The notes under the pieces are model-generated. The model worked only from the letters and a program-made list of their open reading frames with translations, ran no database searches and was not told where the DNA came from. From assembly GCF_057098645.1 (NCBI RefSeq), contig NZ_CM169472.1: 64,000 bases of DNA. The stretch is one strand, 5' to 3'. The position numbers and the translations under genes are program-made. The number at the start of each line of letters is the position of its first letter. Position 1 is the stretch's first letter. Positions 831-40,505 of the stretch are shown here, one piece after another.

Positions 831-1144
831 TCACACCATATCCAGCGCAGTTTTTCCTTTTGGTGCCGGATACGCTTTGTCCAGCATGGCTAATTCCGCT
901 GACGAAAGTTCGACCTCAAGCACAGCCGCATTCTGTTGGACATGGGCAATCGTGGCCGCTTTTGGAATCGCCATCACACCCTGATGGCTGATTACCCACG
1001 CCAACAATACTTGTGCCGCGCTGATATTGTGAGCATGTGCAATTTCGTTGACTACCGCGTTTTTTAACAGTCCATTGCGCAACCGCCCGGCCTGGGCTAA
1101 CGGACTGTAAGCCATCACCGGCATCTGCTGTTGCTGGCACCAGG
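831..1144 (-). pseudogene. yeaE: yeaE 3' fragment (aldo-keto reductase), separated from its 5' part by the IS insertion
   Basis: ORF 831..1217 matches the YeaE C-terminus from WCQQQQMPVMAYS onward; the upstream part of that ORF reads into IS sequence. Confidence 0.85.
1138..1144. repeat. Target-site duplication CACCAGG, left copy
   Basis: The same 7-mer flanks both IS ends (1138..1144 and 3785..3791); the reconstructed yeaE reading frame needs only one copy. Confidence 0.75.
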
Positions 1145-1346
1145 TGCAAAATGGCATCTGAATCGATCGCAGTTTGGCATTCGAATCGATCATGATTTGG
1201 CATCCATCTCCGATCACAGTTTGGCATCACAATCGATCACGATTTGGCATGCTTCCGATCATTGATTGGCATCCTGCCAGTCACTCCGGGAATTAACTCT
1301 TTTCACCACAGTCTCCATTGCCGTGTTTAAACCAGTGGAGACGTCA

Positions 1347-2912
1347 ATGTCCAGAAAGAGAAAATCCAGGAGCACTATGGAAACCTGTTTTAAGATCCTT
1401 CAGCTCAAGTTCGACAAGAAGCTGACTAACCGTTGTATCGGACTGACGTTACACATCAGCGCCTCAACCGTTTTTGAGGTTCTTGCCCGCTTCAAAGCCT
1501 CTTCTCTGTCATGGCCATTACCTGCTGATATATCCCATGACACGCTGGAGAAACTCATTTTTCCGCCCAAAGACACCTTTGCATCAGAGCTTGTAATGCC
1601 TGACATGTTGTACTTCGATACGGAAATGAGAAAACCAGGTGTGACGCGGCAACTGTTGTGGATGGAATACAAGGCACAGGCGGGTAACAAAGCGATGGGA
1701 TACTCGCACTTCTGCCGTTGCTACCGGGAGTGGAAAAAAACGCGACGTCTCTCCATGCGCCAGGAGCATCGTGCCGGCGAAAAGCTTTTTATCGACTTCT
1801 GTGGTCCTACGGTTCCTGTTATTAATCCGGACACCGGTGAGATACGCCGCGTGGCAATCTTCGTGGCCGTAATGGGGGCGTCCAACTATACCTACGTTGA
1901 AGCGTGCGAAGGTCAGGACATGATGTCATGGTTAAATGCCCACAGCCGTTGCCTGACCTTCCTGGGCGGCGTACCGAAGCTGCTCATCCCCGATAACCTC
2001 AGAAGCGCAGTGAAAAAGGCCGATCGATATGAGCCTGTCATCAACGACAGTTATCAGGCACTGGCTGAGCACTATGGCACGGTTATCATCCCGGCCCGAC
2101 CACGCAAACCTAAAGATAAACCAAAAGCAGAAAACGGCGTCCTCATCGTTGAACGATGGCTTCTTGCCCGCATCCGTAATGAAACCTTCCACACGCTCAG
2201 GGCGCTGAATGCGCGCCTTAGGGAGTTACTGACAGACATGAATAACCGGCCAATGAAGGGGTACGGCAATCAAACCCGTGCAGAACGCTTCCGCATACTG
2301 GATGCGCCAGCACTCTCTCCGCTGCCTCTGGCACCTTATGAATACACGGAATACAAAGCTGTGAAGGTTGGCCCTGACTACCACGTTGAATATGCCCGTC
2401 ACTGGTACTCCGTTCCACACGAACTGGTCGGTCAGCGTCTGTCACTGAAGGCGGGGCAGTCGGTGGTACAGCTCTGGCACAAGGGGCAGTGTGTGGCGCA
2501 ACATCCGCGCAGCACACATGAATATAAACACACAACCAATCCGCTTCACATGCCAGAGCGCCACCGGCAGCACGGGACATGGACACCGGAACGCCTGATC
2601 GAGCAGGGAAAACGTACGGGCCCGTCCACAGGCCGGGTGGTTGAATCCATGCTGAAGGCAAAACCCCATCCGGAACTGGCTTATCGTGCAGTTCTGGGGC
2701 TGCTGGCACTTCAGAAAAAATACGGCCCGGAACGGCTGGAAAAGGCCTGTTACGTTGCCCTGCACTATAACGCCCCTGACAGACGCTTTATCGACAATCT
2801 GCTGCGTCACCATCGGGAGAACCTGGAGCTTCCATTATCCCGCCAGGGCGAACAACATCCGGCATATGCTTCAGAGCATGAAAACCTGCGTGGTCCGGGC
2901 TACTACCACTGA
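1347..2912 (+). CDS. istA: IS21-family transposase IstA (521 aa)
   Basis: ORF 1266..2912; preferred start ATG 1347 (MSRKRKS) preceded by GGAG; the longer ORF-track start lies inside the terminal repeats; family assignment rests on the two-gene layout and repeat architecture. Confidence 0.8.
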   Translation: MSRKRKSRSTMETCFKILQLKFDKKLTNRCIGLTLHISASTVFEVLARFKASSLSWPLPADISHDTLEKLIFPPKDTFASELVMPDMLYFDTEMRKPGVTRQLLWMEYKAQAGNKAMGYSHFCRCYREWKKTRRLSMRQEHRAGEKLFIDFCGPTVPVINPDTGEIRRVAIFVAVMGASNYTYVEACEGQDMMSWLNAHSRCLTFLGGVPKLLIPDNLRSAVKKADRYEPVINDSYQALAEHYGTVIIPARPRKPKDKPKAENGVLIVERWLLARIRNETFHTLRALNARLRELLTDMNNRPMKGYGNQTRAERFRILDAPALSPLPLAPYEYTEYKAVKVGPDYHVEYARHWYSVPHELVGQRLSLKAGQSVVQLWHKGQCVAQHPRSTHEYKHTTNPLHMPERHRQHGTWTPERLIEQGKRTGPSTGRVVESMLKAKPHPELAYRAVLGLLALQKKYGPERLEKACYVALHYNAPDRRFIDNLLRHHRENLELPLSRQGEQHPAYASEHENLRGPGYYH

Positions 2913-2928
2913 CAGAAGGAACAACAGT

Positions 2929-3684
2929 ATGAGTGATAACCTGTTAAACAAACTGACCCAACTGAAACTCCCGGCGATGGCCGGGAGCCTGATACGGCAG
3001 CGGGAAACGCCTCAGACCTACGACGAACTGTCGTTCGAGGAAAGGCTGACGCTGCTGGTTGATGACGAGCTTCTGAGCAGGGAAAACAGCCGTGTGGCAC
3101 GGTTGAGAAAAAATGCCGGCCTGAAATACCAGGCAACACCGGAAGGGCTGCGCTATCCGGCCTCAAGAGGTCTGCGGGCTGAACAGATGAGAGAACTGCT
3201 GAACGGCCACTACATAACCCACAGGAAAAACCTGCTGATAACCGGTCCGACAGGATGTGGCAAGAGCTGGATAGCCAATGCGCTGGGCGAACAGGCATGT
3301 CGACAGAAACACAGCGTCCGGTACTGTAGAACCGGGCGATTACTGGAACAACTGGCTCAGGGACGTGTTGATGGCAGCTGGCTGAAATATCTGAAACAGT
3401 TGCAAAAAATACAGGTTCTAATCCTGGACGATCTGGGGCTGGAACAGTTAAGTAACGCCCAGTGTAATGACCTTCTGGAGCTCATAGAGGATCGTTACGG
3501 ACAAAGCAGCACGATAGTGGTAAGCCAGTTCCCGGTAGATAAATGGCATGGTCTGATGGAGAACCCAACAACAGCAGATGCCATCCTGGACAGACTGGTA
3601 CATAACTCACACCGAGTGGTCCTTCAGGGAGAGTCACTGAGGAAAAATCCCCCGGTAGTGGAAAGCAGCGAAAAAACGCGTTAA
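2929..3684 (+). CDS. istB: IS21-family helper ATPase IstB (251 aa)
   Basis: Walker A GPTGCGKSW and DExx-like LILDDLG motifs; ATG 2929 preceded by AAGGA, 16 nt after the istA stop; ORF-track upstream extension overlaps istA and is not used. Confidence 0.85.
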   Translation: MSDNLLNKLTQLKLPAMAGSLIRQRETPQTYDELSFEERLTLLVDDELLSRENSRVARLRKNAGLKYQATPEGLRYPASRGLRAEQMRELLNGHYITHRKNLLITGPTGCGKSWIANALGEQACRQKHSVRYCRTGRLLEQLAQGRVDGSWLKYLKQLQKIQVLILDDLGLEQLSNAQCNDLLELIEDRYGQSSTIVVSQFPVDKWHGLMENPTTADAILDRLVHNSHRVVLQGESLRKNPPVVESSEKTR

Positions 3685-3784
3685 AAAGCGGTAGAAAAAG
3701 TTAAGTTCCCGGTTGATCGAATGGATGCGAATCGCTGATCGGACTTCGATGCCAATCCGTGATCGAATAGAGCGGAATACGCAC

Positions 3785-3791
3785 ACCAGGG
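3785..3791. repeat. Target-site duplication CACCAGG, right copy
   Basis: Identical to 1138..1144. Confidence 0.75.
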
Positions 3792-4331
3792 GAGTAGATC
3801 GTACTCAATCCCTCGTGAACCGAGATGGTAAAGCACCTGATTAGTGGCACACTGATTTCCCCCCGGCAGCTGCCAGAGTTCCTGCATATCAGCATAATCA
3901 AGGTTAGAAACGCCCCAGCGGCGGATTTTTCCCTGGGCGATCAATTTTTCCATCGCTGCGACAGTCTCTTCAAAAGCGAAACGGCCAGACCAGTGTAATA
4001 AGTAGAGATCGAGATAATCAGTATTGAGACGGCGTAAACTGGCTTCGCATGCATTTATCGCTTTTTGCCCGCCAGCATTCCACGGATAGACTTTAGAGAC
4101 GAGAAAGACGTTATCGCGCAGACCGGTTAATGCTTCCCCAACCACCTTTTCGGCACCGCCATCGGCATACATTTCGGCGGTATCAATGAGGGTTAAACCG
4201 AGCTCAATGCCCGCGCGTAGTGCAGCAACTTCTGTTTTGCGCTGACTGGCATCTTCGCCCATATACCATGTTCCCTGCCCTATGGCTGGCAGTGAGACAT
4301 CGCCACTAAATTGAATCATTTTTTGTTGCAT
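3785..4331 (-). pseudogene. yeaE: yeaE 5' fragment (aldo-keto reductase N-terminal about 182 codons)
   Basis: ORF 3681..4331 matches YeaE from MQQKMIQFSG to LLPWC, then continues into IS-derived sequence. Confidence 0.85.
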
Positions 4332-38948: not shown

Positions 38949-40505
38949 TTACTCATCTTCATCGTGCGCCGGTTGCTCTTTAACAATGCGAACCAGATCA
39001 ACACGATAATCATTGGCTTCAATGATGGTGATATGCAGTGGCCCTACATCAATCACATCGCCCACACGGGGAATGTGACCATTTGCCGAGATCACGAGGC
39101 CCGCGACCGTCGCGATATCATCGTCATCGGCAAGGTGCTCAACATCAAGCGCCTGCTGCAAGGCATGCAAATCTGTACCGCCTTTTACCAGCCAGCCGTC
39201 ACCATCAGTAATGATTTCCGGCGTTTCGTCAGCGTCCGGGAATTCACCCGCAATGGCTTCCAGCACATCCAGCGGCGTGACCAGACCTTGTACCACACCA
39301 AACTCGTTGGTCACGATAACAAAGCTCCCGCGAGCACGACGCAGCACGCCCAACAGGTTGATCGGATCGAGGGTTTCCGGGACGATAATCGCCGGAGACG
39401 CCGAAGCAATCGCCGCCACATCAACGCCCTCTTCCAGCGCCACCAGCAGTTCTTTAGCACGTACGATTCCGATGATTTCATCCAGTTCACCGCGACATAC
39501 CGGGAACAGGCTGTGCGGTGAGGAGAGCAGCTGCTCGCGGATTTCATCGACCCCGAGATTAGCGTCAACCCAGCTTATTTCACCGCGCGGCGTCATGATC
39601 CCGCGCAGAGAACGCGACGCCAGCGTCAGTACGCCGTTAATCATGTAACGTTCTTCTTCGGCAAATGCACCTTCCGGGATCGGCATCGGCATCGGGTTAT
39701 CGGCATCGTGCTGAACATTGGCCTGACGTTTCCCGCCCATCAAACGCAGGATGGCATCGGCAGTACGCGCTCGCAGCGGCAAAGTCGACTGGTGACGAAT
39801 AAAGTTGCGACGCGCAATCTGGTTAAACACTTCGATGATGATCGAGAAGCCAATCGCGGCATACAGGTAACCTTTCGGAATGTGGAAACCGAAACCTTCT
39901 GCCACCAGACTCAGACCAATCATTAACAGGAAGCTCAGACAGAGCACCACCACCGTGGGGTGCTGGTTAACAAATCGCGTCAGCGGTTTGGATGCCAGCA
40001 ACATAACCGCCATCGCAATCACTACCGCCGCCATCATCACCGGCAGATGGTTAACCATCCCTACTGCAGTAATTACCGCATCCAACGAGAAGACGGCGTC
40101 AAGGATGACAATCTGTGTGACGACCACCCAGAAACTGGCGTAGCCTTTACCGTGGCCGGAATCATGATCGCGGTTTTCCAGCCGTTCATGCAGTTCGGTT
40201 GTTGCTTTGAACAGCAAGAATATCCCCCCGAACAACATAATCAGGTCGCGTCCGGAGAAGGAGAAATCCATGACGGTAAATAGCGGTTTGGTCAGCGTGA
40301 CCATCCATGAAATCAGCGACAGCAGCCCCAGACGCATAATCAGCGCCAGTGATAACCCCAGTAAACGCGCTTTATCGCGTTGTTTTGGCGGCAGTTTGTC
40401 AGCAAGAATGGCGATGAAGACCAGGTTATCGATACCCAGCACAATTTCGAGAACAACAAGCGTGAGTAGCCCCGCCCAAATTGAGGGGTCCATTAAGAAT
40501 TCCAT
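38949..40505 (-). CDS. yoaE: TerC-family / CBS-CorC membrane protein YoaE
   Basis: 518-aa ORF recognised as YoaE. Confidence 0.9.

Follow-up and report, generated by a model that had tools for sequence, protein, structure and literature searches.

The 64,000-bp stretch of DNA analysed here (NCBI RefSeq assembly GCF_057098645.1, contig NZ_CM169472.1; hereafter the window) carries on its + strand an insertion sequence of 2639 bp, at positions 1145-3783, lodged within the gene yeaE. Its tips are of the TG...CA type (TGCAAA... at the left and ...ACGCA at the right), and alignments of other copies give the same limits, 1145-3783. We modelled the empty site by joining positions 1045-1144 to 3791-3890 and compared the product with E. 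coli genomes. The rejoined flanks match an intact yeaE as a single piece with 100% identity, and this match establishes the 2639-bp length, the TG...CA tips and a 7-bp target-site duplication, CACCAGG, whose left copy lies at 1138-1144 and right copy at 3784-3790. The length of the duplication varies among copies of the element: it is also 7 bp (CTCAGGC) for ISSso4 on pINV, 5 bp in E. coli 3R (CCCGG) and Klebsiella indica (GGCAT), and 6 bp for a miniature copy described below. In the window yeaE, encoding methylglyoxal reductase, is split into two pieces on the - strand (831-1144 and 3791-4331), and its inactivation is the chief practical effect of the element. The same insertion in yeaE is present in E. 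coli strain CDF6, and the gene is intact in essentially all other E. coli genomes.

The element carries two genes on the + strand. The first, istA (1377-2912), encodes a 511-residue transposase and is delimited by the RefSeq annotation of an identical copy, with an alternative in-frame ATG at 1347. The second, istB (2929-3684), lies directly 3' of istA and encodes a 251-residue AAA+ helper ATPase according to RefSeq annotation, Pfam and NCBIfam. IstA scores 284.7 bits against the NCBIfam model transpos_IS21 (cut-off 160) and IstB 257.8 bits against IS21_help_AAA (cut-off 200) and 204 bits against Pfam IstB_IS21. In Pfam, IstA also matches Mu-transpos_C_2 (72 bits, cut-off 27) and, at 32 bits, falls just below the 32.6-bit cut-off for rve. 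From residue 85 on it aligns with the cryo-EM structures of IS5376 IstA, 8b4h/8q4d (E about 1e-13). The order of the two genes, the TG...CA tips, the short duplication and the bipartite direct repeats of ~23 bp described below are all IS21 traits, and the IS21-family assignment made in an earlier preliminary description of this DNA is confirmed by the NCBIfam models passed, the TG...CA tips and the 7-bp target duplication. No named helix-turn-helix domain was recognised by Pfam at the N-terminus of IstA, even at E = 1. Residues 6-70 (window 1392-1586) match the N-terminal region of TnpA, an accessory protein of IS66 (NCBIfam NF038385, E = 9e-15, short of the model cut-off), a similarity that suggests a DNA-binding domain common to the IS21 and IS66 families.

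Near-identical copies of the element occur in hundreds of E. coli, Salmonella and Shigella records. ISSso4 of Shigella sonnei pINV shares 96.3% nucleotide identity with it over 96% of the query, has the same six left and three right repeat units and identical tips, and encodes an IstA that is ~97.7% identical; it differs by a few substitutions, and its innermost left unit (L6) has degenerated further (TTGGAAT). In RefSeq, identical copies of the present element have their IstB labelled 'ISSso4 family' and their IstA named without reference to ISSso4. The isoform rule of ISfinder calls for at least ~95% nucleotide identity to the reference element; that level is reached here (96.3%) in a comparison with the RefSeq-annotated ISSso4 on pINV. 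The element is an ISSso4-like IS21-family insertion sequence of a catalogued type, and repeats such as those at its ends are ordinary and well understood.

The left end of the element is an array of six head-to-tail units on the + strand, spaced 23, 23, 24, 23 and 22 bp. Each unit is bipartite, with a first block TTGGCAT, 5-7 variable bases and a second block CGATCA, the starts of the two blocks being 12-14 bp apart. The first block is an exact TTGGCAT at 1174, 1197, 1221, 1244 and 1266 and reads ATGGCAT at 1151; TTGGCAT is therefore found in five of the six units and TGGCAT in all six, and the exact 8-mer TTTGGCAT is present in four of them. The terminal unit L1 (1145-1169, TGCAAA-ATGGCAT-CTGAAT-CGATCG) includes the tip TGCAAA, which is invariant in the seven lineages compared below. 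It is followed by L2 (1170-1192, CAGT-TTGGCAT-TCGAAT-CGATCA), L3 (1193-1216, TGAT-TTGGCAT-CCATCTC-CGATCA), L4 (1217-1239, CAGT-TTGGCAT-CACAAT-CGATCA), L5 (1240-1261, CGAT-TTGGCAT-GCTTC-CGATCA) and the innermost unit L6 (1262-1284, TTGA-TTGGCAT-CCTGC-CAGTCA-C). The second block of L6 is degenerate here; relatives from Edwardsiella, Enterobacter, Yersinia and Klebsiella have CGATCA in its place.

These repeats are far above the level expected by chance. The left end has six matches to TTGGCAT (at most one mismatch) in 130 bp; when the window was shuffled 200 times, the richest stretch of that length contained two to four matches and never more. Tandem Repeats Finder detects periods of 23 bp (4.3 copies, score 98) and, at a higher order, 47 bp (2.4 copies, 83% matches, score 139), and a repeat search returned a 20-nt unit in five copies, 23, 24, 23 and 22 bp apart. 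When a loose pattern of the whole unit, with three mismatches allowed, was run across the whole window it gave 21 matches against 23 expected, no better than chance, and proved too permissive. The only other concentration of the motif in the window, five near-matches at positions 39680-39710, belongs to a TCGGCAT-like run, tcggcatcggcatcgggttatcggcatcg, which is a simple repeat unrelated to the insertion sequence. The six evenly spaced copies of the motif noted in the preliminary description are thus present where it had placed them and are not fortuitous, and its starting point for the array is correct. Its end point at 1275 falls short: because the second block, CGATCA, belongs to each unit, the true extent is 1145-1284. 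Nor does the array end just before istA, as had been stated, since 63-93 bp lie between the two (counting to the alternative ATG at 1347 or the annotated ATG at 1377).

At the right end the units are inverted relative to those on the left, as the preliminary description had seen, and number three and not two. On the - strand, the terminal unit R1 (3760-3783, TGCGTA-TTCCGCT-CTATT-CGATCA) has a degenerate first block, R2 (3736-3759, CGGA-TTGGCAT-CGAAGTC-CGATCA) is nearly invariant in the seven lineages, and R3 (3714-3735, GCGA-TTCGCAT-CCATT-CGATCA) is the innermost. The closer relatives always have three right units as well, of which R1-R2 are almost invariant. That asymmetric ends with multiple repeats are typical of the IS21 family, as had been proposed, agrees with the published description of these elements (PMC10122671).

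Loss of the repeats in relatives, the observation that had been named as counting against this description of the ends, was not seen, for they are kept in Shigella, Edwardsiella, Enterobacter, Yersinia, Klebsiella and Serratia. Elements that are ~81-89% identical keep both blocks and their spacing while the spacers drift, and six left units at the same spacing are found in Edwardsiella, Enterobacter, Yersinia, Klebsiella indica and Serratia marcescens. Across seven six-unit lineages, 81% of the columns in the TTGGCAT block and 86% of those in the CGATCA block are invariant, compared with 53-55% in spacers and linkers. The inner units L2 and L4 are conserved at least as well as L1: invariant columns in L2 number six of seven in the first block and six of six in the second, and in L4 all 13 block columns are invariant. 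This pattern of substitutions points to purifying selection on the two blocks.

More distant relatives, with 44-52% IstA identity, have the same layout built from other motifs, and in each element the motifs at its two ends match. Left units outnumber right units in all the distant relatives examined: five and three in an Aeromonas element, three and two in IS1491, four and two in ISEc12, four and three in ISFK1, and four or more and two in ISRme9 and ISBmu3. Since the motif varies from element to element and yet matches at both ends, we would expect it to be recognised by a protein that the element itself encodes.

The number of left units also varies among closer relatives, being four, five or six, and this raises the question of whether all of them matter. 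Four are found in the enterotoxigenic E. coli (ETEC) plasmid p666, in pRHB09-C23_2 and in a Buttiauxella copy, and five in a Rahnella copy and a second Enterobacter copy; all five of these copies are defective, through truncation, frameshift or internal deletion. Six left units are found in every element whose istA and istB are intact, although in one of these (L018) istB runs off the contig end. The association between six units and intactness gives a one-sided Fisher p of 0.0076 over 12 lineages that are not independent, and lends weak support to the view that selection maintains six units, with losses only after the element has died. In ETEC H10407 p666 and related plasmids the four-unit array arose by a clean 47-bp deletion, seen at positions 2501-2610 of the extracted loci L003 and L004, that removes exactly two left units. 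The exact deletion variant is represented by 59 E. coli records, with a single place listed for each; because six-unit copies align with the short junction query used for this count in a shifted register, matches below 99% identity are not interpretable, and the 59 are those at or above that level. In both copies of the variant that were checked (L003 and L004) istA is truncated or frameshifted.

A reading in which L1 and L2 alone are functional and L3-L6 are a neutral by-product of tandem duplication, through slippage or unequal recombination, draws on some of the same observations. The pairs L2-L3 and L4-L5 are 47-bp duplicates of one another with 84% identity, from which it follows that the array grew by duplication of a two-unit block, as the 47-bp higher-order repeat would also have it; copies with four and five units exist in nature, the clean 47-bp deletion in ETEC p666 among them; and since integration of IS5376 in vitro requires just two repeats per end (PMC10122671), L3-L6 could be dispensable. 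Neutral units would not, however, be expected to have blocks in L2-L6 as well conserved as those in L1, at a constant spacing and between drifting spacers, in lineages ~81-89% identical. Furthermore, every shortened array found belongs to a defective element, and the excess of left over right units recurs in distant relatives with unrelated motifs. We therefore regard neutrality of L3-L6 as improbable.

A miniature copy of 89 bp, flanked by a 6-bp duplication, is present in the chromosome of E. coli strain 550 (positions 152-240 of the extracted locus L024). It consists of L1, L2, the fused first blocks of L3 and R2, and R1. At 80% coverage or more it was found in 21 of 5,426 E. coli genomes, and because of this low number it is probably the product of one old internal deletion and not a spreading miniature element.

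The 63-93 bp between the left array and istA are taken up by a conserved block and a hairpin. Local alignment of the two ends of the element revealed an inner inverted-repeat block, with a left copy CCGGGAATTAACTCTTTTCACC at 1286-1307 (+ strand), in which 80% of columns are invariant in the seven lineages, and a right copy CCGGGAACTTAACTTTTTCTACC at 3690-3712 (- strand), between the istB stop codon and R3. The alignment scores 27, compared with a mean of 11.4 (sd 1.9, maximum 18) for shuffled sequences. At both ends the block lies 1-2 bp inside the innermost unit, and its distance from the tip is 140 bp on the left and 70 bp on the right. Comparable inner blocks of different sequence are present in ISBmu3, IS1491, ISFK1 and ISRme9. 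We considered the block as a site for IHF and rejected this, as by eye both copies have at least two mismatches at key positions of the consensus.

Adjacent to the left inner block, a hairpin formed by GTCTCCATTG and CAGTGGAGAC (1311-1342, + strand) pairs the GGAG Shine-Dalgarno sequence of the first istA ATG (1347). The RNA is predicted to fold with -15.5 kcal/mol (z = -3.5), and the ten pairs are all kept in most of ten relatives, with one compensatory and several wobble changes. The hairpin probably blocks translation of read-through transcripts.

Scans for sigma-70 promoters and for terminators found none at either end. A relaxed sigma-70-like scan of window positions 1100-1420 and of modelled right-left junctions likewise gave nothing convincing, and TGGCA was rejected as part of a sigma-54 element, there being no -12 TTGC. 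In the IS21 family, tandem copies bring a right end up against a left end and so create a hybrid promoter, the right end supplying the -35 and the left end the -10 element. Modelled right-left junctions with the ends 2-7 bp apart contain no pair of hexamers matching at 8 or more of 12 positions, by a simple consensus scan that a weak promoter could escape. Abutted right-left junctions, as in tandem copies, were absent from the 5,426 E. coli genomes; the search yielded mini-copies with internal deletions instead, and the one match that covers the whole junction query extends over 541 bp and comes from such a deleted copy.

These results bear on the idea that the inner left units serve chiefly as an operator, at which bound IstA represses its own transcription or stops read-through coming from outside, and take no part in the complex that cuts the ends. 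The extra units are on the istA-proximal end only, here and in all relatives examined; masking of promoter elements in the ends by bound IstA has been proposed (PMC10122671); and the conserved hairpin, which would hide the Shine-Dalgarno sequence, suggests that expression is tightly limited in this element. Against this, no sigma-70-like promoter was seen in 1100-1420 or at the modelled right-left junction, and the right end too has an extra unit, R3, with no gene downstream. As no promoter was found in or beside the array, the case for autoregulation is weakened and it stays a proposal; we consider a mainly operator role possible but doubtful.

The second block contains GATC, the Dam target, and E. 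coli, the host, has Dam. GATC is present in eight of the nine units (all but L6) at intervals of 22-24 bp, at 1165, 1188, 1212, 1235 and 1257 on the left, within 93 bp, and at 3715, 3737 and 3761 on the right, against a background in the window of 254 GATC in 64 kb, or about one per 252 bp. Such a cluster might tie transposition to replication as in IS10 and IS50, hemimethylation altering the binding of IstA or SeqA. Plasmids of Cupriavidus, Burkholderia and Bradyrhizobium, however, harbour relatives that also have the GATC-containing second block, and the Aeromonas relatives lack it. Since this distribution among relatives is not host-specific, GATC is better read as part of the sequence recognised by IstA, and we think it very unlikely that the array is there as a methylation cluster.

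Taken together, these data argue that the repeats are very probably the multiple terminal repeats of the element, that is, an array of putative IstA-binding sites. The terminal inverted repeats of IS21 elements consist of multiple direct repeats, L1-L2 and R1-R2, 23 bp apart, with two conserved blocks per repeat that IstA contacts through its domains HTH-2 and HTH-1; the ends are paired by a tetramer of IstA as two right-handed crossings of the DNA, and the spacing favours superhelical wrapping (PMC10122671). By analogy with the IS5376 complex, each IstA monomer here would use two N-terminal helix-turn-helix domains, one for each block, an assignment made tentative by the distant relationship between this IstA and that of IS5376. 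On the same model, L1-L2 and R1-R2 would build the IstA tetramer in which the ends are paired and cut at the terminal CA, and the 23-bp step would wind the DNA round the protein in the manner of negatively supercoiled DNA.

The regular spacing had earlier been taken to mean cooperative binding along one helical face, with the sites side by side. A 23-bp step is 2.19 helical turns and rotates each unit by ~69 degrees relative to the previous one, so that only L1 and L6 come back into register, and the solved complex shows wrapped and crossed DNA. The regular spacing itself is all that speaks for a single face. Given the 2.19-turn step, the one-face reading is wrong in our judgement, with only the slimmest chance of being correct, and wrapping, which the literature favours, is the better account of the 23-bp period.

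The remaining units, L3-L6 and R3, may, with less certainty, be accessory IstA sites that are kept by selection, the additional left units having perhaps arisen through tandem duplication of the two-unit 47-bp block. Most likely they would load or hold IstA beside its own gene, and they may in addition mark left from right or damp istA expression. The repeats of IS21-type ends have been proposed to hold the transposase in an autoinhibited state until IstB arrives (PMC11208146), and a role for the extra terminal repeats of Tn7, which are analogous to the extra units here, has been left open (PMC10122671). A stronger version, that the four extra left units together with the inner block form a selected control module which this clade needs in vivo, seems to us unlikely on present evidence. 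If true, it could make the array a loading platform for IstA or an operator, possibly one sensitive to Dam methylation of GATC, and would explain why every intact element has six units and only dead copies have fewer. Left ends that naturally carry four, five or six units could be used to probe what sites beyond the two needed in vitro contribute.

The ISSso4 literature that we found consists of passing mentions, with no description of the ends of the element among them. Arrays of this sort are already known and the element is a catalogued one; the map of its ends adds new detail and not new biology. The useful by-products of the analysis are the exact limits of the element, the target duplication and the map of nine putative IstA sites.

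Among known systems other than ISSso4, the ends described here resemble those of IS5376 and IS21, with which they share direct repeats at both ends, a 23-bp spacing, two blocks per repeat, TG...CA tips and an IstA + IstB operon. They differ in having six left and three right units as opposed to two per end in IS5376, and in their blocks, which are closer together (starts 12-14 bp apart) and not GC-rich, unlike those of IS5376. The IstA encoded here is also ~110-140 residues longer than the IS5376 IstA chains (373 and 406 residues), to which it is distantly related, and no junction promoter was detectable by a consensus scan. Elements of the clade with a long IstA (ISEc12, IS1491, ISAs29, ISRme9, ISBmu3, ISFK1 and the Aeromonas element) likewise have bipartite units 22-24 bp apart and a left end richer in units than the right end; their motifs are different, and they have three to five direct left units compared with six here. 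At their left ends ISEc12, ISRme9, ISBmu3 and probably ISAs29 have in addition a further set of units in inverted orientation, absent here, which lies upstream of istA after ~4 direct units and comprises ~4 units in ISRme9 and ISBmu3 and two in ISEc12. Finally, TnsB of Tn7 and MuA of phage Mu, transposases to which IstA with its Mu-transpos_C_2 domain is related, also act on several sites per end and on unequal ends (PMC10122671); the sites of Mu and Tn7 are irregularly spaced or overlapping and involve extra factors, whereas the units here are strictly head-to-tail.
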